The notes under the pieces were generated by a model. That model ran no database searches. It saw only the letters and a program-made list of their open reading frames with translations, and was not told the DNA's origin. Of a stretch of 64,000 bases of DNA, positions 15,546 to 26,879 are shown in pieces (the stretch's first letter is position 1; each line of letters opens with the position of its first letter). The translations under genes and the position numbers were made by a program. Origin of the DNA: Acidobacteriota bacterium (lineage in GTDB: Bacteria > Acidobacteriota > UBA6911 > RPQK01 > CBDDCF01); NCBI GenBank assembly GCA_965225995.1, contig CBDDCF010000019.1, positions 11,310 to 75,309 on the forward strand, read 5' to 3'.

Positions 15546-15893
15546 ATGCCTGAGAACCGCAACAACTCGCATCCTACGCCGCTTTCTCCAACCGTTTTTC
15601 ACATCTTACTAGCGCTCGAGGCCGGACCTCTCCACGGCTATGCCATCATGCAAGCACTGGCCGAGGAGGCGCAGGGGGTAGTCAAGGTAGGACCGGGAAC
15701 CATCTACGGTTCCCTGCAACGGATGGAAACTTGGGGATTGGTGGAAGAGATCCGGATCCAGTCCGATGACCGTCGCCGGCATTTTCGGGCCACTCTGGCT
15801 GGCCGCACGGCGCTTCGTGCTGAAGCGGGCCGCCTGGTGAGGCTCGCCAATCAAGTCGTAGCTCGAAAACTGGTTCCTCGGGAGGGATCTTGA
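15546..15893 (+). CDS. PadR-family transcriptional regulator
   Basis: 115-aa ORF with a winged-helix PadR pattern (HILLALEAGPLHGYAIMQAL...GPGTIYGSLQRMETWGLVEE). AAGGAA lies upstream of the ATG, and the stop overlaps the start of the downstream permease gene. Confidence 0.9.
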   Translation: MPENRNNSHPTPLSPTVFHILLALEAGPLHGYAIMQALAEEAQGVVKVGPGTIYGSLQRMETWGLVEEIRIQSDDRRRHFRATLAGRTALRAEAGRLVRLANQVVARKLVPREGS

Positions 15894-18574
15894 ACCGAAT
15901 AGCCTTGCGCCTGTGCCTTCGCTTCTCAATCCGGATTTATCGCCTCCTGATTACCTGCTATCCGGAGACATTTCGGAGACGCTTTTCCCACGACCTCTTG
16001 AGAGATGGCTCAGAGGCCTTGAGCGATGCCGTCGAGAATCGGGGAGCCTGGGGAGTGGCGGCCGCCTGGAGCGTTCTGCTCCCAGATTGGTTGGTATCTT
16101 TGCAGATGACTCGCCGGATGCAGCCTGGCCGAGCTGATGCCCCGCGCCGCGAATCAGCCCTCCATGGGCTTGGATTCGGACTCCGGCTGGCCGCCCGCTC
16201 GCTCCGAAACACCCCTGCCGACAGCCTATCCGTGCTCGCCATTCTGGCCCTTGTTTTCGCAGCCGGCAGCCTCGTTTGGAGCGTCTACGAAGGGACCCTG
16301 ATCGCTCCTCTTCCGTATGCAGACCCGGATCGCCTTTATTTCTTGTGGCAAGCAGAACCGGGCCATCCGGAAGCGGGCCTGTCGGTCCCTAACTTCCTTG
16401 ACCTGGAGAGGGAATCGGGAGAGTCACTGGAATTGGCTGCCTATCAGGACGGCACTGCGACCTGGGCGGGGGAGGATTTCCCGGTCCGAGTTCATGTGGC
16501 CCGGGGAACCCCCGACCTTCCGCGACTCTTGGGAATGGAGCCCCTACTCGGGCGATCCTTCCAACCCAACGAGGAGCCTGACTCGATTATTCTGCTACAC
16601 GGGTTCTGGAAGAGCCATCTGGGAGCGGCTCGGGACATCGTAGGACGTGACCTACTATTGGCAGGTCGGCAGCACAGGGTGGTGGGCGTAGCGGGACCTT
16701 CCTTCGAGATTCCTGGAGCCTCACAGATCGACATTCTGGGGGCGGCCCAGCTCCGTGCGGAGTCGTCTTGTGGCCGGGGCTGCTCCTCACATACTGCGAT
16801 TGCCAGGATTCATCCGGAAGCCACCAGTTTCGAGGCAGAGCGGATCCTAAAGCGGCAAATGGCGGCTCTGGCAGAGAGCTTCCCCAGCGACAATGCCCAG
16901 ACAACGGTGCGCCTGGTGCCTCTCAAGCAGCCGCTCAGAGGCCACCTCGAAGCTCCTTTTCGAGTGTTGCTTGGCGGATCTTTCCTGGTGCTTCTGATAG
17001 CTCTGGCCAACATCTCGGGTTTGTCCCTGTCGCGCGGCCTCGCGCGTAGCTCAGAGTCTTCGCTGCGCCAAGCCTTGGGGGCATCGCGCAGGGATATTTG
17101 GAAGCAGCCGCTGCTCGAGAGTCTGATACTCGCAATCGGTGCCACCGCTCTGGGTCATCTTGCAGCTGTTTGGGCACTGCCTGCGTTATTGGCTCTAGCC
17201 CCCGACGAAGTGGCTCGACTCGATCACTTAGAAGTCTCGCTCGCGCATGCGGTACCGCTTATCGGACTCTCCATCGGAGTCGCTCTGATCTTAAGTTGGG
17301 CACAGGTGTTGGGAAAAGCGCGACCGACAGAAAGCGCGATTTTCCATGCCGCTTCGCGAATTGCCAGCTCACGATCCGCCGGAGGAATGCGGCGAGCCCT
17401 CGTCACCATCCAGGTGTCTCTCACGGCGATTTTGCTTTCGGGATCGATTCTGCTCCTGCAAAGTTCAAGCCGACTCGCGAAGCTGGATCCTGGATTTGTG
17501 CCCGAACACCTGGTGATGGCCAGAATTGCCTTTTCCGGAGAACGCTACGAATCGCGCGCTACACGAAGTGCCTTCCATCGCGAATTGCGAGAGAGACTCG
17601 AGCGGAGGCCACAAATCCGACAGGCAGCCGCCAGTTGGCTTCCACCGGTCAGCCCGGGCAGTAACGTTTCGACCAGCTATTGGGTGGAAGGGCGAGTTGA
17701 GCCCTCCCCGGGGACCCGCCCGGAAGCCGAGTTGCGCGCCGTCACCGAAAACTACTTTGCTACCACTCGGATTCCTCTCCTGGCAGGACGTGACTTCAAC
17801 CGGCATGACGATCTCCGGTCAATTCCGATCGCGATCGTCAGCCAATCTTTGGCGGAACGAGTCTGGCCGAGCCAGAACCCGATAGGGCAAAGGCTGACCC
17901 ATGGACTTCGCTTCGCAAGTGAGTCAGGAACGGATGAGTTCCGCGAGGTTGTGGGAGTGGTAGGAGACGTTCGGGTTCTGGGCTTGTCTCGACCCTCTCT
18001 ACCGATGATCTACATCCCCTATGACCAGTCCTTCCCCTCGGCGATGAGCGTGGTGGTGAGAGGTGAGGATGCACACGGCGAGTTGGTCACCGCAATTCGG
18101 ACCGAAGTAGCTGAGATGGATCCGCTGCTGCCCCTATTTTGGATCGATTCGTTGGATCGGGTCCTGACTGCCTCGATCGCCGGTCCCCGGTTCCTCTCTC
18201 TACTGGCCAGCTTGTTTGCCGGCCTGGCTGTGACGCTGGCACTGGCCAGCAGCTACGCAGTCCTGAGTTTTCGCGTGATTTCCCATCACCGTGAACTCGG
18301 AATTCGCATCGCCCTGGGGGCCGCTCCAATGGATCTGCGACGCTGGGTCCTGAGGGCAGCCCTACGGGTGTGCCTACCCGGAATTGGGATTGGCTTCTGC
18401 GGGGCGGTGTCGCTCAGCCGCTCCCTGGAAGGTTGGATCCAGAGAGTGCAGCGTGTAGATCCTTTTTCACTTCTGAGCGCCAGTTTCGGATTGGCTCTGG
18501 CAAGCCTCTGCGCCAGCTACTTACCGGCCCGAAAAGCCACCCGAATCGACCCCGCCAGAATGCTCAGGGAGTAG
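15890..18574 (+). CDS. ADOP-type duplicated FtsX/MacB permease (894 aa)
   Basis: A permease-prefix N-terminus is followed by two MacB-like periplasmic domains, each with an FtsX 4-TM module. The C-terminus YLPARKATRIDPARMLRE is typical of FtsX-family ends. Coupled to padR, as is usual for acidobacterial duplicated orphan permeases. Confidence 0.9.
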   Translation: MNRIALRLCLRFSIRIYRLLITCYPETFRRRFSHDLLRDGSEALSDAVENRGAWGVAAAWSVLLPDWLVSLQMTRRMQPGRADAPRRESALHGLGFGLRLAARSLRNTPADSLSVLAILALVFAAGSLVWSVYEGTLIAPLPYADPDRLYFLWQAEPGHPEAGLSVPNFLDLERESGESLELAAYQDGTATWAGEDFPVRVHVARGTPDLPRLLGMEPLLGRSFQPNEEPDSIILLHGFWKSHLGAARDIVGRDLLLAGRQHRVVGVAGPSFEIPGASQIDILGAAQLRAESSCGRGCSSHTAIARIHPEATSFEAERILKRQMAALAESFPSDNAQTTVRLVPLKQPLRGHLEAPFRVLLGGSFLVLLIALANISGLSLSRGLARSSESSLRQALGASRRDIWKQPLLESLILAIGATALGHLAAVWALPALLALAPDEVARLDHLEVSLAHAVPLIGLSIGVALILSWAQVLGKARPTESAIFHAASRIASSRSAGGMRRALVTIQVSLTAILLSGSILLLQSSSRLAKLDPGFVPEHLVMARIAFSGERYESRATRSAFHRELRERLERRPQIRQAAASWLPPVSPGSNVSTSYWVEGRVEPSPGTRPEAELRAVTENYFATTRIPLLAGRDFNRHDDLRSIPIAIVSQSLAERVWPSQNPIGQRLTHGLRFASESGTDEFREVVGVVGDVRVLGLSRPSLPMIYIPYDQSFPSAMSVVVRGEDAHGELVTAIRTEVAEMDPLLPLFWIDSLDRVLTASIAGPRFLSLLASLFAGLAVTLALASSYAVLSFRVISHHRELGIRIALGAAPMDLRRWVLRAALRVCLPGIGIGFCGAVSLSRSLEGWIQRVQRVDPFSLLSASFGLALASLCASYLPARKATRIDPARMLRE

Positions 18575-18995
18575 AACTGGCATCCCTCAAGCTGTCTCAA
18601 AACTAGCCAGAATAGAGAGTTTAGCCTTCAGGAAAACGGAGTTTCAAGAGAGTGCAAGGCGCCTACCAGGTAGCGATCTTATTGAAAATAAGACCTTTGT
18701 AGTCGAACCTGACGGTCCGTTCGCGGCCTCGGAGATGTCTCCTGCGCTCCTGGAAATCACTCTCTTGAAGCCTATCAGGGAGGCTTTGAGACAGCTTGAG
18801 GCCCACCTGCTTTCCGAAGGTTGGCGCAAATCTGACTCTTGCAAAGCTCCTTTGGTCGAGGGTGGTCGGGGAGCAAGCAGGGATGCTGGGCTACTTGGGC
18901 AGGCAGGGATGCCTGTGTTAACGATCATGTAGAAGAGCGTTTTTCTGGACCATGAAGCCGGACAGTTAGAAGGGGCAGGAGAGGGCGCCGAAAGG

Positions 18996-19322
18996 TCATT
19001 TCCGAGCGGAGAGTCTTCGTTTCAGATACTGGGAGTATCCGTCTGGAAGCGGGTTTTGGAGCAGCTCCTCAATGACGGGGAGAAAGTAGTGGAGAGATCG
19101 AATCGGGGCCAGCTGTGGAGCCGTGGGAGGGCGTAAGAGTCGGCGAGCGGAGGCCAGCAGGAAAGTCTGGCGGACGGTGCACAGCGGAATCTGACGGTCA
19201 AAGAGTTGTCCTGCCAGCGATCGGTCCGGTGTCCTGCAGTGTGAGGGAGTATCGGGAAGGTCTCTGTAGGAAGCGAGCACCGCACGGACATAGCCAGGCC
19301 GGTAGAGGCATTCCTTTTTCAT
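18996..19322 (-). CDS. hypothetical protein translationally coupled to istB
   Basis: 108-aa ORF ([26 protein letters not shown]...). Its ATG overlaps the istB stop in ATGA. No family recognised. Confidence 0.5.
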
Positions 19323-20110
19323 TTCTGTTTTTTCTTTAGGCTGCGGCGTTGGGCGGCCTCCAGCTCACTTTCGCGACGGCGATAGCTCTGCCCTTGGATC
19401 AGACTGACGGCGGCATGATGGGTAAGACGATCCAGCAGCGAGACGATGGAAGTGGCGTTGGGAAAGACCAGGTTCCAGTTCTTAAAGGCTCGATTGGTCG
19501 TGATGAGAATGGAACGGTGCTCGTACCGTCGGTTGATGACCTCGTAGAGCAGATCAGCCGCATGAGTGTCGTAGGAGAGGTAGCCGATCTCGTCGATGCA
19601 CAGCAAAGCGGGTCGGGCATACTTCTTGAGTCTTCTTCGCAACAGCAAAGGAGAATCCGACTGCAGATCGTCGAGGAGATCCGAAGCCGTACGGAAGAGG
19701 ACGGAGTGACCGGCCAGGACGGCCGCATGAGCGATGTTCTTGGTGATCATGGTCTTGCCGAGTCCGTTAGCTCCGAGCAGAATCAGGTTTCTCCCCTCGC
19801 GGATGAAGTCCAGTGTGAGAGCTCTCTCAATCAAGGGGCGATCGATCTTTTCGGGCCAGTTCCAATCGAAGTCGGCCATGGGTTTGAAGCGACCGATGCG
19901 AGCACAGCGCAGGCGTCGCTCAAGGGAACGGCGGGCTTTCTCAGTGGCTTCCCTGCGAGCCATCTCTTCGATCAGAGTGCGGGGATCCCAGCGGCCCTTG
20001 ATGGCGCGAGCGAGAAAGTCGTCCAGTTCGCCCGCTAGACAGTAAAAGCCGAGGCGAGCGAGTTCTTGGGTCAGTTCATTCGGATTGGGGTTCGGATTGA
20101 GTGAGTTCAC
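19319..20110 (-). CDS. istB: IS21-family helper ATPase IstB
   Basis: Walker A GANGLGKT, Walker [10 protein letters not shown]. Start set at GTG 20110 ([15 protein letters not shown]). The 403-aa ORF in the track extends upstream only because the frame stays open inside istA. Confidence 0.9.
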
Positions 20111-21566
20111 CGTAATCTTCCGGTGGATGAGGGTGAACGTCCAGAGCTTCCAGTTCGGGATGTCGTGAGAGATCGACAGGCAGTGCCGTGCGACCGGCTC
20201 GACGACTTCTCTGAAGCAGAAAGGCGACGGCTGAAGCGCGTGGAGTCTGACGCTCGAGGGCTTGGCAGAGGGCCGCTCTGAGAGCCTCGGGACCGTAGTC
20301 CTCCAGCAGCAGGAGCAACTGGCGAGTCTGATGGGAAAGGGACTCGCCCTTTTCCACAGCCCCCTGGAGAAGTTCTTCGGCTTCAGGCGCGGCCCGAGTG
20401 AGACGGTCGGAAGGAGCCGCAGCCCAGGCTTTTCGTTTCTGCGCCAGTAATGCCTGCTGATGGGCCGGATCGGCCACCAGTTGACCGCGGTCGTAACTGC
20501 GACGATGAGAAGCCACCAACTGGGTGCCATCCAGGACGCGGACTCGGGTGTCGGAGGCCACCAGAGTCAAGGCCTTTCCCTCAGCCTGGGGCGGAATCGA
20601 GTAGTCGTTCAGATCAAAGCGCAGATAGAGCGTCTTCTTGGAGTGGATGGAAACCATAAGTTCGGTATCGAAAGGGTGAGAGGGCAAGGCCAGAAGCTTG
20701 GCTCTTTCTTCGGCGAAGACCTCAGCCACACAGCGAGAGCGATCCTGAGGCCAGGGCCGTTGGTGGGCGATCTGTTGGAGCCACTCGTGAGCCTGCTCGT
20801 TGAAGCGCTCCAGTGTGGTGAAAGGCCGAGCGGCAAAGAAGGATTCCCTGACAAAACGCAGTGCCCGCTCAATCCGACCTTTTTCATTGGCGCGACCCAC
20901 GTGACAGGGCCGGGGCGCAAAGTGATAGTGAGCGGCCAGCTCCAGCAGTCGCGGATGAAAACGGATGGCATCGCCGCGACGCTCGAGCACGACACTTTTG
21001 AGATTGTCGTACAGGAGTGTTCTGGGGCAACCACCCCAGGAATGAAGGGCGCGAACATGGGCGCGCAGGAAGTTCTCCAGGGATTGATCGAAGAAGAATT
21101 CCAGGTACAGGGCTCGGGAGTAGGAGAGGATCAGGGCCATGCAGGAGAGCTTGCGACGGGCCCTGCCGATGGTGACTTCTCCCAAACTGGCCCAGTCCAC
21201 CTGTGCCTGCTCGGCGGGAAAGGTACGCAGTCGCAGAAAGACCTCTCGGGGGGAGGGACGCACAGTGGCTACGCGTCGGCGCAGCGTGATGACGCTTCCG
21301 GTGTAGCCGCGCTGGCGAACCATCTCGAAGATCCGAGTGGCGCGCAGTTTCGGATACTGCTTGAGGATCTGGCGAACAAACTCCTCGTAGGGGTCGGTCA
21401 GGCGGGCACGAGCTTGCTGTTTTGTGGCGGCAGCAAAACTCTCCGTTCCGATGGCTCGGCGCACGGTGTCGTGGTGAATGCCCAGTTCTGCGGCAATCGT
21501 CCCGATTTTCCAGTGTTCGGCATAAAAGAGGCGACGAATCTGAGTTTTCAGTTCCGGGGTGATCAT
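20076..21566 (-). CDS. istA: IS21-family transposase IstA
   Basis: 496-aa ORF with an N-terminal HTH ([19 protein letters not shown]) and a DDE integrase-core region ([10 protein letters not shown]..., [10 protein letters not shown]). Confidence 0.9.
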
Positions 21567-21569
21567 CGC

Positions 21570-22016
21570 TCACCCCCAATGGAAGGGGTCGCCCCAGCGG
21601 CCGACGCCACCGCAACGAACACAAACCGGGGCAAAATCGGGTTTGTGAGACAAAGACTGCTTTGCATGACCGTTCTCCTGATCCATGGCAGCAATCCTTC
21701 TCAGCGTTGAGAAGGCTGCCATGGGCGGGAACAGCCTGATCGAAGCAGATGCTTTGCGTCTACCCTGATCCGTCACGCGGGCTGCGCATAGCCGCTTTCG
21801 GTAGGCTCGTTGTCGGTCCCGATGATCGGCTCGACCCTCGGGAGATTGCTGGTGGCGACGATTGGCTGCGCGGCATTGTTGGCGGCGCTGTCGCAGACGA
21901 CAGGCTTGGCTGCAGTAGCCATGACCTCGGTCGCAGGGGCGGCAAATGTGAAACAGTTTGCGGCAACTCGCACAGCGACAGATGCGTTGGCGAAGAACGA
22001 TCCTCGGTTCGACCAT
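21570..22016 (-). CDS. Cys-rich zinc-finger-like protein immediately upstream of istA
   Basis: 148-aa ORF. The N-terminal part is a Cys cluster plus a basic region (CRCASCRKLFHICRPCDRGHGYCSQACRLRQRRQQCRAANRRH). A second CxxC (CVRCGG) lies near the C-terminus. The stop is 3 nt from the istA ATG. Confidence 0.5.
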   Translation of the reverse strand: MVEPRIVLRQRICRCASCRKLFHICRPCDRGHGYCSQACRLRQRRQQCRAANRRHQQSPEGRADHRDRQRAYRKRLCAARVTDQGRRKASASIRLFPPMAAFSTLRRIAAMDQENGHAKQSLSHKPDFAPVCVRCGGVGRWGDPFHWG

Positions 22017-22305
22017 AAGTCCAGCTCCGATGGGAGTCTGGACAAATGGCCCAGGGTCGTGACAGGCTACAGTCCGTTAGTGGTAAAACCCCTTTTCCAA
22101 GAAGGCTGCCACGACCGGGCCTCGGTTGCTTAAACAGCCGAGGTCCACCCCTTTTCAAGTCTGCAAAACCATACCTTACTGGGAGGGAAAAAACCGCCGA
22201 GCGACGACCGCCCGGGAATCCAAGACCCACCTGCGGTGGGGATGATGTCGCTTAACTACTCTGCGGGTGATAGTTCAGAAAGACGCGCTTCTTCGTGATC
22301 GTTAA

Positions 22306-22498
22306 CATCCGAAGCTCGAAGCACGAAAGGAAATCTCAAATCTCAAGCTTCAAAACAGAAGAATCCGAAGCCCAGGCTGAGCCAGGCGAGTGCGATCAAG
22401 AGAACTGTTCCCGCCGACACCTGGATCGGATTCTTCTATTGTTCTTCGTGCTTGAAATTTCCCTCGTGCTTCGGATTTCGTGCTTCGTGCTTTGGATG
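22306..22498. repeat. imperfect palindromic MITE-like element
   Basis: The left arm CATCCGAAGCTCGAAGCACGAAAGGAAATCTCAAATCTCAAGC... pairs with the right arm ...GCTTGAAATTTCCCTCGTGCTTCGGATTTCGTGCTTCGTGCTTTGGATG. A partial related copy lies at 60388..60427. Confidence 0.5.
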
Positions 22499-23567: not shown

Positions 23568-26500
23568 CTACTTCGGCACCTTAACCGGTTCTGGTACCTT
23601 CATTCGGGGAATGTCGGCCCGACGGACTTTGCCTTCGAGTTGCGACATTTCCTTCTTCAGGAAGTCATTGAGCCACTCGGCGAGCTTTCGCACTTCAGGA
23701 GCGTCTCTCTTGAAGACCGCTATCAATGTGTCGGTCGGCCGGAACGGGGAATCATTGATTGAGTTATAAGTGCTGGACAGGCTGCGAGCCGAACGATTCA
23801 GATCTGCCGTTTCTTCTTCCAGCTGTTTGAGCAGGTCATCGATCTCGCTCAATAGCTCGGAGTCCTGCCCCTCGAGTTGCGTTTTGAGATCACTCAACTG
23901 GCTGCGCACTTCCGTCAAAGTGGTCTGGGTTTCGGTACCTAGAGTAATCAACGGGATCAATTCCTCCAGAGTTTGGCGACGGAAACGACGATCGGAATCG
24001 CTAACCTGAACTTCGGGATCGGGTTCCACGGCGATTGTGCCACGGGTTTCACTCTCACCCCTGTGAATCACAACACTGTAATTTCCTGCCTCGACCAGCG
24101 GCCCGCGCGAGCCTCCTCGTCCACCCCGCCGCCCGGTGTTCCCGGTCTTCGGTCCTTCCCCGCGGAGATCCCAGAAGTATCGATGGAGACCCTTGTTAGC
24201 TGGCGCTTGAAGTTTCCGGACAGTTTTGCCGGCAGCATCCAGAATCGTCAACTCGAGCTGGGCATCTCGGGAGCTACCGCCACCTCTCCCGGCGCCGCGA
24301 CCTCCTCGACGGCCTGCTTGATCACCCGACTCTCGGGCGTTCCTTTCCGGGCGCGCGAGGCGATAGTCGTCTTTGAGGTAATAGGTGATGGCTGCTCCGT
24401 ATTCCGGGTTATCCGCAATGAAGCGCTTCTCACCCAGGAACTGGTCATCCGAGTGGACCCGATACTGGAACGCTGGGACTGGCTTGGTCTTGAACAGATG
24501 GAAATCGTGGGCCAGCAAGTTGTTCGTCAGTTCGCGCAAGGGGGCGATGTCCACTACCCAGGCACTTCGTCCATGGGTTCCCACCACCAGTTCCCCGTCT
24601 CGTGGATGGACCACCATATCGGCGATTTGTACGGTGGGCAGGCCGGACATGAATCGGGTCCAATGCGAACCGCCGTCGAGCGAGGCAAACACCCCGAACT
24701 CAGTCCCGCAGAAGAGTAAATTCTCACTGACGATATCTTCCCTGACTACACGGACTGGGCCGTTGGAGGGCAGATTCGACGCAAGACTGCGCCAGCTGTC
24801 CCCACAGTCATCAGTACGGAAGAGATGGGGCGAGTAGTCGTCATTCCGGTGACCGTCGAAACTGACGTAGGCACGGCACTCTTCGAATCTCGAGGCAACC
24901 ACTCTTGAAACCCAACGCCGTCCTGGCAACCCAGGGAACCGCTCGGTCAGGTTGGTCCAATTTCGACCGCCGTCGCGCGTCAAGTGAACTGTTCCGTCGT
25001 CACTTCCGGCATATAATAGCCCTTCTGTCAAAGGAGATTCGGACAGGGTCGTCAAGGATCCGATTTTGCGGGTCTCGGGCGGATCGTCGCTGTCCTCAGA
25101 GTCGTCGACCGGCTCGGTAGCATCAGTCAGATCGTGGCTGATCTCTTGCCAGGTGTCTCCTCGGTTGGTTGATTTAAGCACCAGGTTCGCTCCTACATAG
25201 AGCGTCTCGTGGGCGTGGGGAGAGATGATGATGGGAGTTTCCCAATTGAATCGGTAGCTATTCTCGGGATCGGATGCCTGAGGTTTGATGGAGGTGTTCA
25301 GGCCCGACTTCAGATCGTGCCGGATCAGTCCTCCCCCCTGCATTTCGGCGTAGACGATGGTGTGGTCCGTGGGGTCGATTCGAACCTGAAAGCCATCTCC
25401 GGTCATGACCTTGTACCAGTCCGAGGCGGTGATGCCCACCCCGTTTCGAGTAGCGCTGGGTCCACCCCAGGAGCAGTAATCCTGAACCCCACCGTAGATG
25501 TAGTAAGGCTTTCGCATATCGACGTCGATAGCGTAGAACTGCCCCAGAGCCATCTGGTTCAGAAAGTCCCAGCTCCTACCCCGATCGAAGCTGAAATAGA
25601 TGCCGCCATCGTTTCCTAGCACCAGGTGTTCCGGGTCCTGGGGGTTGATCCAGAGAGCGTGATGGTCGACGTGGACATTGATTTGTTGGTTCTCAAAGTT
25701 CTTTCCCCCGTCTTCCGAGACAGCTACGGAGCCTCCCAGAACATAGACCCGCATGTCGTCCTGGGGATCGACTCGGATCTGGCTGTAGTAGAAGGGGCGA
25801 GGATTGATGGGATTGACCCACGTCCAGCTTTCGCCCCGATCTTCAGATCGGAAGACGCCACCATCTTCCATGTTGCGCTGTCTCTGAACGGGAGGAGCAT
25901 TAAAGTTGGGACGACGTGTCACGCTGGACACTGTCTGGACGATGGCATAGACCACATTGGGGCTGCTCAACGACACCGAGAGCCCGATCCGGCCGATTTC
26001 GCCTGATGGAAGCCCGCTCGTCAGTTTTTTCCAGTTACGACCTCCGTCAGTAGTCTTATGGATGGCGCTGCCTGGTCCCGTCATGATGGCCGGATTTCCT
26101 CCTGCGAAAGCGTCCCGCTGTACCTGGTAGGAGGCGGCGTACAGGGTCCGGCTATCGTGAGGATCCATAGCCACGTCGACGACACCCGTGCGATTGTTGA
26201 TTTCGAGCGATTTTTCCCAGGTCTCTCCCCCGTCCTTGGTCTTGTACAGGCCGCGCTCCGAGTTAGAACCCCAGACATGTCCTAGAGCTGCTACCCAGAG
26301 AATATCTGGGTTCCGCGGATCGATCACCATTCTCCCGATGTGGTGGGTATCGCTCAGTCCCATGTGCTTCCAACTCTTACCGCCATCCGTCGATTTGAAC
26401 ACGCCGTGTCCCCACGACACACTGTTGCGGGCATTCGCCTCCCCGGTTCCCACCCAGATTACGTCGGGGTTGTTGGGATGAACCGCTACCGCTCCCACTG

Positions 26501-26774
26501 AGCCGGTCGACTCGTGTTCGAAGATCGGAGTCCAGGTAACCCCATTGTTGTCGGTGCGCCAGAGTCCACCGGTGGCGGTGGCAACGAAGATGTGGTGAGG
26601 GAATTCTCCCACCACAGCCAGATCCACAACTCGCCCGCCAGCCCCGGCCGGCCCCACGGAACGCCACTTGAATGCTTCGAAAACCGATTCCTCTATCTGT
26701 CCCAATGTCGGCACTACTGATGCAAAGAGCAGGGAAGAAATCAAAACCAAACGGGTCCAACTTCGAATTGTCAT
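23568..26774 (-). CDS. BNR/sortilin (VPS10)-like beta-propeller protein, secreted
   Basis: Long ORF 23568..26852 with many BNR-like S/T-x-D-x-G-x-T-W repeats (TDNNGVTW, STDGGKSW, TKDGGETW, TTDGGRNW, SEDRGESW, TRDGGRNW, SLDGGSHW). Start placed at ATG 26774 (MTIRSWTRLVLISSLLFASVVPTLGQ), which has GGAG upstream. Confidence 0.85.
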   Translation of the reverse strand: MTIRSWTRLVLISSLLFASVVPTLGQIEESVFEAFKWRSVGPAGAGGRVVDLAVVGEFPHHIFVATATGGLWRTDNNGVTWTPIFEHESTGSVGAVAVHPNNPDVIWVGTGEANARNSVSWGHGVFKSTDGGKSWKHMGLSDTHHIGRMVIDPRNPDILWVAALGHVWGSNSERGLYKTKDGGETWEKSLEINNRTGVVDVAMDPHDSRTLYAASYQVQRDAFAGGNPAIMTGPGSAIHKTTDGGRNWKKLTSGLPSGEIGRIGLSVSLSSPNVVYAIVQTVSSVTRRPNFNAPPVQRQRNMEDGGVFRSEDRGESWTWVNPINPRPFYYSQIRVDPQDDMRVYVLGGSVAVSEDGGKNFENQQINVHVDHHALWINPQDPEHLVLGNDGGIYFSFDRGRSWDFLNQMALGQFYAIDVDMRKPYYIYGGVQDYCSWGGPSATRNGVGITASDWYKVMTGDGFQVRIDPTDHTIVYAEMQGGGLIRHDLKSGLNTSIKPQASDPENSYRFNWETPIIISPHAHETLYVGANLVLKSTNRGDTWQEISHDLTDATEPVDDSEDSDDPPETRKIGSLTTLSESPLTEGLLYAGSDDGTVHLTRDGGRNWTNLTERFPGLPGRRWVSRVVASRFEECRAYVSFDGHRNDDYSPHLFRTDDCGDSWRSLASNLPSNGPVRVVREDIVSENLLFCGTEFGVFASLDGGSHWTRFMSGLPTVQIADMVVHPRDGELVVGTHGRSAWVVDIAPLRELTNNLLAHDFHLFKTKPVPAFQYRVHSDDQFLGEKRFIADNPEYGAAITYYLKDDYRLARPERNARESGDQAGRRGGRGAGRGGGSSRDAQLELTILDAAGKTVRKLQAPANKGLHRYFWDLRGEGPKTGNTGRRGGRGGSRGPLVEAGNYSVVIHRGESETRGTIAVEPDPEVQVSDSDRRFRRQTLEELIPLITLGTETQTTLTEVRSQLSDLKTQLEGQDSELLSEIDDLLKQLEEETADLNRSARSLSSTYNSINDSPFRPTDTLIAVFKRDAPEVRKLAEWLNDFLKKEMSQLEGKVRRADIPRMKVPEPVKVPK

Positions 26775-26879
26775 CGACTCCATCTCCTCTGGGTGTTTAC
26801 CTTGTAGCCCTATTCTGAATTCAGCGGCGAATTGCCTTGATACTACACTCAATCGAAAATGCAGGCTACGGTTGTTCGA

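Follow-up and report, generated by a model that had tools for sequence, protein, structure and literature searches.

A recently active IS21-family insertion sequence with four coupled genes, one of them a remote relative of DnaD-like helicase loaders

The region from 18916 to 22307 of the window—the whole stretch of 64,000 nt of Acidobacteriota DNA that was analysed—is a copy of an IS21-family insertion sequence that is 3,392 bp long and has been active recently. Besides istA and istB, the element carries two further genes, orf148 and orf108, and all four form a single translationally coupled block between 38-nt inverted repeats, so that both extra genes move with the element. Taken together, the data are best explained by a four-gene subgroup of IS21, in which orf108 would act as a partner of IstB and orf148 as a control or architectural factor. 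We give this reading as a whole a probability of about 0.5.

Boundaries, gene order, and leader of the element

The genes lie on the minus strand; hence, position 22307 is the left end of the element (IRL) and position 18916 the right end (IRR). Imperfect terminal inverted repeats of the sequence TGTTAACGATCA... delimit the element, and their 38-nt arms (18916-18953 and 22270-22307) are 84% complementary. Within the IRL (22270..22307), the tip TGTTAACGATCAC is repeated 28 nt inward as TCTGAACTATCAC—an L1/L2-like layout, the tip block of which is conserved in 29 relatives. The IRR (18916..18953) reads TGTTAACGATCATG...TCTGGACCATGA from its tip. The reiteration of the tip at +29 is present on both ends of the element, which terminate in TG...CA.

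Ten copies of the element are present in the genome, sharing the exact start and end at an identity of 99.76-100%, each of them within different flanks. Target duplications of 5-7 bp surround the genomic copies, for example TACCC (5 bp) at copy C30 and GTCAGG (6 bp) at copy C25, and pairs of copies with exchanged flanks share TCGGA, CAGGC, GTCTTGG, and GAGAGGG as 5- and 7-bp matches. The flanks of the 10 copies comprise small repeats as well as unique DNA, among which no common target motif was found; GGAGAGG-like flanks occur at a few copy junctions, and the other flanks are unrelated. Contigs from other public runs also end at 18916 and 22307 with differing flanks, and one 3,394-nt contig from these runs is the element by itself. 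At several places in this genome, assembly breaks and rearrangements are moreover explained by the boundaries of the element.

An earlier note on this DNA, written from the sequence alone, had drawn the unit from 18996 to 22016, which is too narrow in light of the inverted repeats and the ten copies. Its central proposal that four coupled genes make up one mobile unit is borne out by the comparison of copies, ends, and target duplications that it had suggested: the inverted repeats lie outside of both accessory ORFs and not between these and istAB, the unit is present as a whole in ten copies, and the gene order recurs in other genomes, as described below. All four frames are open in 10/10 genomic copies, no copy lacking the flanking ORFs, and both extra genes hence belong to the inside of the element.

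On the minus strand, the genes follow each other in the order orf148 (22016..21570), istA (21566..20076), istB (20110..19319), and orf108 (19322..18996). Only 3 nt separate orf148 from istA, with the junction reading TGA-GCG-ATG from stop to start; istA and istB overlap by 35 nt; and orf108 starts in an ATGA overlap with the istB stop. The first and the last of these junctions were already seen correctly in the earlier note. The product of istA is an IS21-family DDE transposase of 496 aa that matches NF033546 with 255.8 bits (E 5.9e-76, cut-off 160 bits) and Mu-transpos_C_2 with 70.2 bits (E 1.2e-19). For istB, which encodes an AAA+ helper ATPase of 263 aa, the match to PF01695 reaches 182.7 bits (E 1e-53, cut-off 24.1 bits), and the match to NF038214 is with 198.6 bits (E 1.2e-58) slightly below the cut-off of 200; IstB also matches the DnaC helicase-loader model (E 8.5e-6). 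The open frame of istB spans 19319..20530, and its start codon at 20110 is GTG in this copy and ATG at the same position in the other nine genomic copies. Comparison of the ten copies also marks the change D235A of IstB as private to this one. In metatranscriptomes, two runs yielded contigs that comprise most of the element and bridge the orf148/istA and istB/orf108 junctions, with DNA carry-over being possible and contigs as such not amounting to proof of a transcript. A consensus scan revealed no sigma-70-like promoter on the gene strand.

The first gene is preceded by a structured leader of 291 nt. On the minus strand, the consensus scan places a terminator-like stem followed by T6 at 22192..22215, about 93-120 nt from the left tip (8 such sites in the region vs 3.3 expected), which may block read-in transcription from outside. 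Further downstream, at 22115..22149 and some 110-145 nt before the ATG of orf148, lies a conserved stem-loop of 11-12 bp, for which RNAalifold on 28 sequences shows compensatory double changes in 10/11 predicted pairs. The antisense fold of this hairpin is the more stable one in 17 of the 28 sequences and the sense fold in 11, a lean that is weak (Wilcoxon p 0.03, sequences non-independent). The hairpin is flanked by the direct repeats CCCCTTTTC(C)AAG, both on the plus strand: in gene orientation, copy 1 (CCCCTTTTCAAG, 22148..22159) is positioned directly 5' and copy 2 (CCCCTTTTCCAAG, 22089..22101) 3' of it. These repeats had been reported in the earlier note, and their existence stands—the window holds two matches vs 0.05 expected, a number reached in 0/100 shuffles—but their suggested role as subterminal IstA-binding sites is not supported. 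They do not look like IstA sites, lying 149 and 207 nt inward from the left end, being unlike the termini, lacking a copy at the right end, and occurring as the exact motif in 0/37 leaders of relatives. At either end, the repeats typical of IS21 are represented by the tip and by its second occurrence 28 nt inward.

Two conserved protein families next to istAB

The conservation patterns of orf148 and orf108 are protein-like and indicate that both are real, conserved, and so far unnamed protein families. For orf148, we combined homologues, an alignment of these (A1), and an AF2 model (pLDDT 76.6). At its N terminus, the 148-aa protein bears the Cys cluster CRCASCRKLFHICRPCDRGHGYCSQAC at residues 13-39 (C13, C18, C25, C28, C35, and C39), a region that resembles a zinc-ribbon or treble-clef-like knuckle. 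This is followed by a helical hairpin that is rich in Arg and bears the near-invariant block ANRRHQQSPEGRxDHRDRQRxYRxR, then by a variable linker, and finally by a C-terminal CxxCG...DPF, which contains the second CxxC (C132 and C135). The cysteines of the cluster and of the second CxxC, to which the earlier note had drawn attention, are invariant in 38 homologues. Within the genome, 3/10 copies carry H65N at an otherwise invariant residue. A DNA-binding role is plausible for such a protein.

The orf148 family is large, with 531 homologues at E<=1e-3 and 3,533 cluster representatives among 1.84 billion proteins. A weak match to a Cys-rich Rhodanese_C is seen in 26/38 members; Foldseek with the AF2 model gave no PDB entry at E<=0.001; the best hit of a wide fold search with VIA-align (Z 5.2) covers long helices only; PDB sequences returned chance-level zinc-finger rows only; and the ESM Atlas holds the family in unnamed clusters only.

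Among 80 orf148 loci in other genomes, istA lies directly downstream in 65, orf108 is detected by HMM in 43, and the full order orf148–istA–istB–orf108 is present in 39. Both ORFs hence recur with istAB, the point that the gene-neighbourhood survey proposed in the earlier note was meant to test. At least nine IS21 elements with orf148 are without orf108 although space is available. In further loci, orf148 is followed by a DnaG-like primase and two tyrosine recombinases (L024, with the same layout in L026, L068, and L069), by ArdC (L081, also L076 and L089), by a DDE_Tnp_1 transposase (L067), or by orf108 and tyrosine recombinases (L061 and L073). Fused forms were found once each with a tyrosine recombinase (P0359) and with an IS110-type transposase (P0380).

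The 108-aa product of orf108 is predicted to be a five-helix protein (homologues, alignment A2, and an AF2 model with pLDDT 90.6), of which 382 homologues were collected. In the loci found through orf108, its domain directly follows an istB match in 17/20. It does so also in IS21 clades without orf148, whose IstA is 23-33% identical, and many IS21 elements with orf108 are without orf148. In these divergent clades, istB is followed by an ORF of 250-312 aa that carries the orf108 domain at its end; eight of the loci found through orf108 (L131-L133 and L135-L139) show this combination of a divergent istA (23-33%), a longer frame ending in the domain, and the absence of orf148. Elements with only one of the two genes imply that neither is obligatory for IS21-type transposition. 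In L061, L073, and P0241, orf108 occurs with tyrosine recombinases and without IstB and, hence, IstB cannot be its sole partner. P0241, the sole protein found in a search for longer or fused forms of orf108, consists of a truncated tyrosine recombinase and the domain, and is probably a rearrangement.

Remote homology shows orf108 to be a distant homologue of the C-terminal domains of DnaD-like helicase loaders or of phage/plasmid replication initiators. Its profile aligns to that of a chromosomal family, A4, with an hhalign probability of 96.6% (E 5.9e-10, 84 columns), and in the same region 9/9 A4 members match phrog_7498, annotated as 'DnaD-like helicase loader' (best 1.3e-12). In viral contigs, the orf108 domain forms the C terminus of phrog_270 and phrog_9327 proteins: in one contig it ends a protein matching 'replication initiation protein' (1.2e-9) that adjoins ParA, and in a second one it ends a protein matching 'primosomal protein' (2.2e-8). 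The connection to DnaD is transitive, since direct matches to any DnaD-like PHROG (0/40 members) and to PDB sequences (none at E<=10) were not found; Pfam DnaB_2 (PF07261) likewise matches 0/40 members at E<=1. Foldseek with the AF2 model gave no PDB entry at E<=0.001, and the ESM Atlas holds unnamed clusters only. Compared with the DnaD-domain structures 2i5u and 2zc2, the model reaches Z 5.5 and 5.4 at an rmsd of 2.9 over 67 and 71 residues, and its best fold matches are AAA+ lid domains with Z up to 7.6—all of these values being below the quoted noise level for helical bundles.

DnaD is described as an N-terminal winged-helix scaffold domain (DDBH1) joined to a C-terminal DNA-binding domain (DDBH2), with YxxxIxxxW in the penultimate helix as a DNA-binding motif (PMC2978336). 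In other IS21 clades, remote homology shows the orf108 domain fused to a putative winged-helix domain, corresponding to the full DnaD-like layout: the N termini of three fused proteins examined from behind istB weakly match HTH_36 or Crp-like winged helices, and weak matches to phrog_186, again a 'DnaD-like helicase loader', are found at 7.7e-5 and 1.4e-4. The penultimate helix of orf108 itself bears the invariant residues Y79, V83, and I84 and aliphatic residues at +8/+9 without a Trp, so that it only approximates YxxxIxxxW; the related family A4 carries Y...V...W in the corresponding motif.

Possible roles of the two accessory proteins

We tentatively propose, at somewhat less than even odds, that orf108 and orf148 are DNA-handling helpers of IstB and IstA. 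IstB, as an AAA+ protein of the DnaC/DnaI type, would be partnered on the DNA side by orf108 in the way DnaD/DnaB-type proteins partner DnaI. By binding or remodeling DNA, orf108 might aid the assembly, positioning, or release of the IstB oligomer, which passes target DNA on to IstA. The orf148 protein might be a zinc-stabilised, Arg-rich nucleic-acid-binding protein that is made first from the operon and to whose synthesis the translation of istA would be coupled. As orf148 heads operons of unrelated recombinases, it would not be an IstA-specific subunit and could rather be a general control or architectural factor, for example a repressor or an assembly factor. A predicted complex of IstB, orf148, and orf108 gave ipSAE values of 0.08 and 0.01 (mark 0.32), which, being uncontrolled, speak neither for nor against binding.

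A stronger form of this proposal, which we regard as rather improbable in its entirety, is that this branch of IS21, a widespread one, encodes a primosome-like set of Zn-ribbon protein, IstB, and DnaD-type protein. Here, orf108 would load or position IstB, acting on its oligomer as DnaD/DnaB-type co-loaders act with DnaI, and orf148 would serve DDE, DEDD, and tyrosine-recombinase elements alike as a portable control module of the zinc-ribbon type. If true, these elements would be an extant connection between helicase-loading systems and transposition assisted by AAA+ proteins.

The DnaD-like or replication-initiator class of orf108 would also fit an activity that bypasses IstB: orf108, in some elements together with orf148, might recruit the replication-restart or gap-repair machinery of the host to the strand-transfer product. 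Mu requires the restart primosome after strand transfer, and in other mobile elements the gene right after an orf148 relative encodes a DnaG-like primase. DnaD, DnaB, and DnaI are, moreover, described as components of the restart primosome (PMC2978336). However, the host genome shows no match to PF07261 at E<=0.01, at which the control genomes of B. subtilis and L. lactis did match, and a DnaD-dependent host pathway to plug into is hence not evident; the position of orf108 right after istB, with overlapping start and stop, fits a role linked to IstB at least equally well. We consider host recruitment unlikely.

Still less probable is that both small proteins are portable cargo or selfish-benefit genes—for anti-defence, addiction, or hijacking of a host factor—outside of the transposition chemistry. 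It is true that orf148 stands first in widely differing mobile elements, some of whose loci carry the anti-restriction-type gene ArdC, that its most conserved block is near-invariant across contexts as expected if a host component is bound, and that both families are dispensable for some IS21 clades. Against this stand the tight translational coupling within the istAB operon, a 3.4-kb element without other cargo, and the placement of orf108 after istB, which persists across very deep divergence of IstA and IstB. In addition, orf148 has no match among the PLSDB plasmids, and none of its 115 pattern matches in IMG/VR viral contigs is a relative.

In transposons of the Tn7 and Tn5053 type, target selectors recruit the AAA+ regulator. 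By analogy, a DNA-binding protein like TniQ/TnsD might pick sites and recruit IstB through the orf108 domain, for which eight divergent loci that lack orf148 and whose longer frame ends in the domain offer a partial complementarity; yet this is the least probable account, and the targeting role considered in the earlier note finds no backing, as no motif is shared by the flanks of the 10 copies nor, by eye, by the right flanks of two winged-helix–orf108 elements (G240 and G300, 10 copies each), and no TniQ or TnsD Pfam domain is present in orf148 or orf108. Candidates for a selector would be orf148 or, in other clades, the winged helix to which orf108 is fused.

Returning to the preferred reading of orf108 as a partner of IstB, its relation to DnaD-type partners of DnaC/DnaI loaders and the membership of IstB in the same AAA+ clade point to an undescribed layer of control. 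IS21 serves as a structural model for the control of a DDE transposase by an AAA+ regulator, IstB, and is described as having two genes; here, a large subgroup, occurring for the most part in bacteria of soil and sediment such as Acidobacteriota, bears two further conserved ones. The orf108 finding gives a concrete handle on the long-noted kinship of IstB and helicase loaders, and the members of both families, 'hypothetical proteins' that number in the hundreds to thousands, can henceforth be labelled IS21-associated.

Comparison with known systems

The IS21 family is described as a two-ORF system of istA and istB (PMC10122671). In its canonical members, the terminal inverted repeats consist of reiterated L1/L2 and R1/R2 sites. 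As in the canonical IS21 and IS5376, an IstA DDE transposase is followed by an overlapping IstB AAA+ helper, the termini are TG...CA with the tip reiterated about 28 nt inward on both ends, and target duplications are short. Unlike these, the present element and at least 39 relatives bear four ORFs instead of two, and the element has a 291-nt structured leader before its first gene and a length of 3.4 kb. With four conserved ORFs inside the inverted repeats, it is filed as an IS21-family variant. In the full-text literature searched, nothing was found on additional IS21 genes or on a connection of DnaD and IstB in transposons, and a curated IS entry that lists these ORFs may exist.

The DnaD/DnaB proteins with the loader DnaI of B. 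subtilis, and phage replication initiators with their DnaC-like loaders, are comparable in that orf108 is remotely homologous to the C-terminal domain of DnaD-like or initiator proteins and adjoins the gene of the DnaC/DnaI-type AAA+ protein IstB; the fused relatives of orf108 share with DnaD the order of a putative winged-helix N-domain and an orf108-type C-domain. Unlike DnaD and DnaB, orf108 is without a Pfam DnaB_2 match, only approximates YxxxIxxxW, and resides in a transposon instead of a replication module; of the ORFs inspected at orf108 loci, none was noted to encode a replicative helicase.

InsA of IS1 and regulators of the OrfA type are small DNA-binding proteins that are encoded upstream of, and coupled to, the transposase. 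Like InsA, orf148 is small, basic, predicted to bind zinc, first in its operon, and coupled to the translation of the transposase. Unlike InsA, it is not a frameshift partner of the transposase, has no predicted helix-turn-helix, and accompanies several unrelated recombinase classes.

Mu (A and B), Tn7 (TnsABC with D/E), and Tn5053 (TniABQ) are multi-gene relatives of IS21. Unlike in Tn7 and Tn5053, neither orf148 nor orf108 showed homology to TniQ or TnsD, and no target specificity was seen. What the four-gene element has in common with Mu, Tn7, and Tn5053 is the composition of a DDE transposase, an AAA+ regulator, and extra accessory proteins, which in those systems bind DNA.

Extent, copies and mobility of the element

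The four genes lie on the minus strand in the co-oriented, coupled arrangement described by the earlier note. The open reading frame orf148 (22016..21570) is separated from istA (21566..20076) by a gap of 3 nt in the junction TGA-GCG-ATG. istB lies within the open frame 20530..19319 and starts at 20110—35 nt ahead of the istA stop—and its own stop has an ATGA in common with the start of orf108 (19322..18996). From their model matches, IstA and IstB are clearly IS21-family proteins: IstA matches NF033546 (255.8 bits) as well as Mu-transpos_C_2, and IstB matches PF01695 (182.7 bits), NF038214 (198.6 bits, with a model cut-off of 200), and the DnaC model (8.5e-6). For orf148 and orf108, no match at a useful level was found in Pfam or NCBIfam. 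Judging from their many relatives and the protein-like conservation in the alignments, both are genes; many of these relatives are carried on contigs of 3.3–3.7 kb, which corresponds to the size of the element.

A 3.9-kb query around the genes yields ten full-length matches in the genome from which the window comes (36 contigs, 6.79 Mb in total), all with identical start and end bases. These shared ends coincide with an imperfect 38-nt inverted repeat (18916–18953 and 22270–22307, arms 84% complementary). Hence, the element spans 18916–22307 (3,392 bp) and reads TGTTAACGATCA...TGATCGTTAACA at its ends. The observation of one mobile four-gene unit is confirmed, with its proposed extent of 18996..22016 redefined. 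Contigs of other public runs agree independently with these boundaries, as their matches end at 18916 and 22307 and continue into other flanks; one such contig of 3,394 nt is the element alone. BLAST of the element against its own genome shows ten copies with identities of 99.76–100%, and a solo element end of 47 bp (C7:49452-49498).

The copies differ by substitutions only, and the four frames are open in 10/10; the copy on contig C28 is without the final 7 nt of the right tip. Three changes are private to the window's copy: one is synonymous in istA, one both causes IstA D486G and replaces the istB start codon ATG, present in the other nine, by GTG, and one causes IstB D235A (plus-strand place 19410), at a residue that is D in the other copies and mostly D in 36 relatives. 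In three other copies, an invariant residue of orf148 is changed (H65N).

The flanks differ among all ten copies. Perfect target duplications are kept in two of them (TACCC on C30, GTCAGG on C25), and the C32 copy shows the near-duplication TAAAAC/TAAAC. Four pairs of left and right flanks from different copies match over 5 or 7 bp: the left flank of the window's copy (C19) and the right flank of C35:194420 share TCGGA, the reciprocal pair shares CAGGC, C3-left and C36:1088742-right have GTCTTGG in common, and C35:127832-left and C36:982149-right have GAGAGGG. As 7/7 matches are expected only ~0.006 times among the 100 possible pairs, the IS copies recombined with one another after insertion. 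Such exchanged target duplications point to inversions or translocations of this genome through homologous recombination between its IS copies.

The window's copy lies between members of small repeat families (18585–18801 and 22306–22498). Both stretches look MITE-like, as each is itself bounded by short inverted repeats, of 17 nt (18585–18601/18785–18801) and 23 nt (22306–22328/22476–22498), respectively. The 200 bp at 18600–18801 have ~40 genome copies of 76–88% identity, and several other IS copies are also situated within small repeats. By eye, the insertion has an ordinary host gene on either side (15890–18574 and 23568–26852), with an 894-aa protein resembling a duplicated MacB/FtsX-type permease and a 1,094-aa protein with the look of BNR/sortilin-type repeats. 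The genome further contains ~22 copies of another istA (27% identical), each followed by its own istB (33%)—for example C35:365129-367332 and C36:1020875-1023078—and dozens of further IstB-like matches at 29%, amounting to 90 istB matches in all. Neither orf148 nor orf108 was found beside these other IS21-type genes; within this genome, both occur only in the ten copies.

Ends and leader

Each end consists of a tip and a reiteration 28 nt further inward: TGTTAACGATCAC and TCTGAACTATCAC on the left, TGTTAACGATCATG and TCTGGACCATGA on the right. This is the same arrangement as that of the L1/L2 and R1/R2 sites in the description of IS21 ends within PMC10122671.

The leader comprises 291 nt from IRL to the orf148 ATG. 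Its alignment over 29 relatives—chosen from the 39 four-gene loci for having 300 nt or more upstream—displays conserved blocks: the tip, a ACATCATC box ahead of a small GC hairpin, a stem-loop, and a GCCGTTGTCCAG box just ahead of the start codon. The predicted stem-loop (22115–22149) is supported by covariation, with compensatory double changes in 10/11 predicted pairs among 28 sequences (two further identical duplicates excluded). As the hairpin is palindromic, its strand is not readable from the sequence; folding of both strands favours the antisense by 17 vs 11 of 28, a weak lean.

Two direct repeats at 22089–22101 and 22148–22159 had been put forward in the earlier note as subterminal IstA-binding repeats. 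The repeats themselves exist (two matches vs 0.05 expected; two reached in 0/100 shuffles), but there is no reason to regard them as IstA-binding sites: they stand on either side of the leader hairpin, and their exact motif was not found in 37 relatives. In the leader alignment, the relatives bear purine-rich GAAGG-like runs at the same two places. A terminator-like stem followed by T6 appears 93–120 nt from the left tip in a consensus scan only.

orf148 as a portable first gene

For orf148, a 90%-clustered database contains 531 relatives at E<=1e-3, and a set of 1.84 billion representatives clustered at 50% contains 3,533, with 1,874 at E<=1e-10. The alignment shows eight conserved cysteines (C13, C18, C25, C28, C35, C39, C132, and C135), the near-invariant block ANRRHQQSPEGRxDHRDRQRxYRxR with VTDQ after it, a variable linker, and a C-terminal CxxCG...DPF. 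The AlphaFold2 model (mean pLDDT 76.6) comprises a zinc-knuckle hairpin and a long helical hairpin (37–57, 59–82); the linker is modelled with low confidence, and the C-terminal knuckle confidently. That the basic block hardly varies speaks for an invariant ligand, either nucleic acid or a host factor.

The neighbourhoods were scanned with the orf148 alignment in one genome per species, keeping the best 80 of 308 relatives, and the downstream context was assigned by tblastn with the window's four proteins. Within these best 80, istA starts directly after the orf148 match in 65: 39 loci show all four genes in order, 14 show istA only (contig ends or disruptions), and 12 show istA and istB with orf108 not matched. 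Three of these 12 are cut by the contig end, and in the nine with room, an HMM search did not find orf108. Another two loci bear orf108 directly after orf148 without istAB (L061, L073), and 13 have no istA, three of them without room. The locus titles are mostly Acidobacteriota, along with Xanthobacteraceae, Anaerolineae, Opitutaceae, Sphingosinicella, Gemmatimonadales, Rhizomicrobium, Planctomycetota, and others; since short repeat contigs are not reliably binned in MAGs, this breadth is a lead.

Away from istA, the orf148 relative of L024 precedes a DnaG-like primase (Zn_ribbon_DnaG and Toprim) and then two tyrosine recombinases, a layout repeated in L026, L068, and L069. orf148 is followed by ArdC in L081, L076, and L089, by a DDE_Tnp_1 transposase in L067, and by orf108 and then tyrosine recombinases in L061 and L073. 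Fusions of the orf148 N-half occur in single representatives, one with a tyrosine recombinase (P0359) and one with an IS110-type transposase (P0380). These varied contexts and fusions mark orf148 as a portable gene that stands first in recombinase operons, most often in those of this IS21 branch. Because it serves unrelated recombinases, orf148 would not be IstA-specific, and its place as the first, coupling gene of the operon fits a control or architectural protein. As a side observation, the primase loci (L024:5001-8581 and its three counterparts) form a distinct mobile module of Acidobacteriota, in which the primase zinc ribbon is CHC2 and the recombinases are consecutive.

orf108, IstB and comparison with known systems

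orf108 has 382 relatives, and its profile matches 45/401 genomes sampled from the phylum, a tally that includes one genome marked unpublished (G033), used for that tally only. Invariant residues of the alignment include Y19, T25, D33, A57, R60, R61, S76, L77, Y79, F80, V83, I84, E86, and Y96; AlphaFold2 predicts a five-helix bundle (pLDDT 90.6). The domain directly follows the istB match in 17/20 representative loci. Eight loci found through orf108 carry orf148 upstream of istA, and eleven are without it. The closest relatives, in 11 copies in the genome G377, have orf148 and a 70% identical IstA, while the loci without orf148 include clades with IstA only 23–33% identical. In three scanned proteins of these divergent clades, the ORF after istB encodes 250–312 aa: the C-half is the orf108 domain, and the N-half gives weak matches to phrog_186, 'DnaD-like helicase loader' (7.7e-5 and 1.4e-4), and to models of winged helices (HTH_36, Crp-like). 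Two further multi-copy IS21-type elements—~3.35 kb in G240 (L143-L152) and ~2.76 kb in G300 (L153-L162)—have a third gene that joins a winged helix to the orf108 domain. In G240, the tips read TGCGTATTCCGG..., the duplications are 7 bp long (CATAACA, GTCTGAT), and the left end carries GATTCCGGAGCAAACCGGCC-like units in varying number.

Also found by the profile is a chromosomal protein that one acidobacterial genus has as a single copy, plus one other. Aligned to these proteins by hhalign, orf108 gives a probability of 96.6% (E 5.9e-10, 84 columns), and 9/9 of them match phrog_7498, 'DnaD-like helicase loader', in the same region (best 1.3e-12). In IMG/VR, the domain occurs twice, both times at the C-terminal end of a larger protein: a 'replication initiation protein' of 374 aa (phrog_270, 1.2e-9) adjoining a ParA, and a 'primosomal protein' (phrog_9327, 2.2e-8). 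Fold matches include the solved DnaD C-domains 2i5u (Z 5.5) and 2zc2 (Z 5.4), outscored by AAA+ lid domains, all within helical-bundle noise. Searches with orf108 for Pfam DnaB_2, for a PDB sequence match, and, with 40 orf108 proteins, for a direct PHROG match found none. With a probability of roughly four in five, orf108 is a member of the class of DnaD or replication-initiator C-domains, as a divergent branch reached only transitively.

The chromosomal protein (L112-L120, e.g. L114:1489-2172) has 227–272 aa and an N-terminal DnaD-like domain, of which there may be a second, weak copy; no Pfam match was found. By eye, from translations, it adjoins biotin-ligase-like and valyl-tRNA-synthetase-like genes.

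The sections of PMC2978336 on DDBH2 describe it as the module by which DnaD and DnaB bind DNA and undergo DNA-induced oligomerisation, with its penultimate helix carrying a YxxxIxxxW motif, and have DnaB co-load the helicase with DnaI, a DnaC homologue. The penultimate helix of orf108 bears the invariant Y79 and V83/I84, but no Trp. Its last helix is basic.

IstB being a DnaC/DnaI-type AAA+ protein, we infer that orf108 is its DNA-side partner: it would help to assemble, position, or recycle the IstB oligomer, which presents target DNA to IstA. A DnaD-type gene directly after istB, kept over deep divergence and with a start/stop overlap, makes this reading the most economical. Its rivals are that the accessory proteins recruit host replication or repair, or that their genes are cargo unrelated to transposition. 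A third rival, a role in target selection as envisaged earlier for the Cys-rich protein, finds no support in the flanks examined (own copies; G240 and G300 elements).

In full-text literature searches, no description of extra IS21 genes or of a DnaD–IstB link in transposons was found; an earlier curated entry is possible. The element represents a branch of IS21 that carries two conserved accessory genes, the one for a predicted DnaD-type domain protein tied to IstB (orf108), the other for a portable, putative zinc-ribbon, arginine-rich protein (orf148). The IS21 family, in its outline within PMC10122671, has two ORFs between inverted repeats; the window's element, in contrast, has two more conserved genes.
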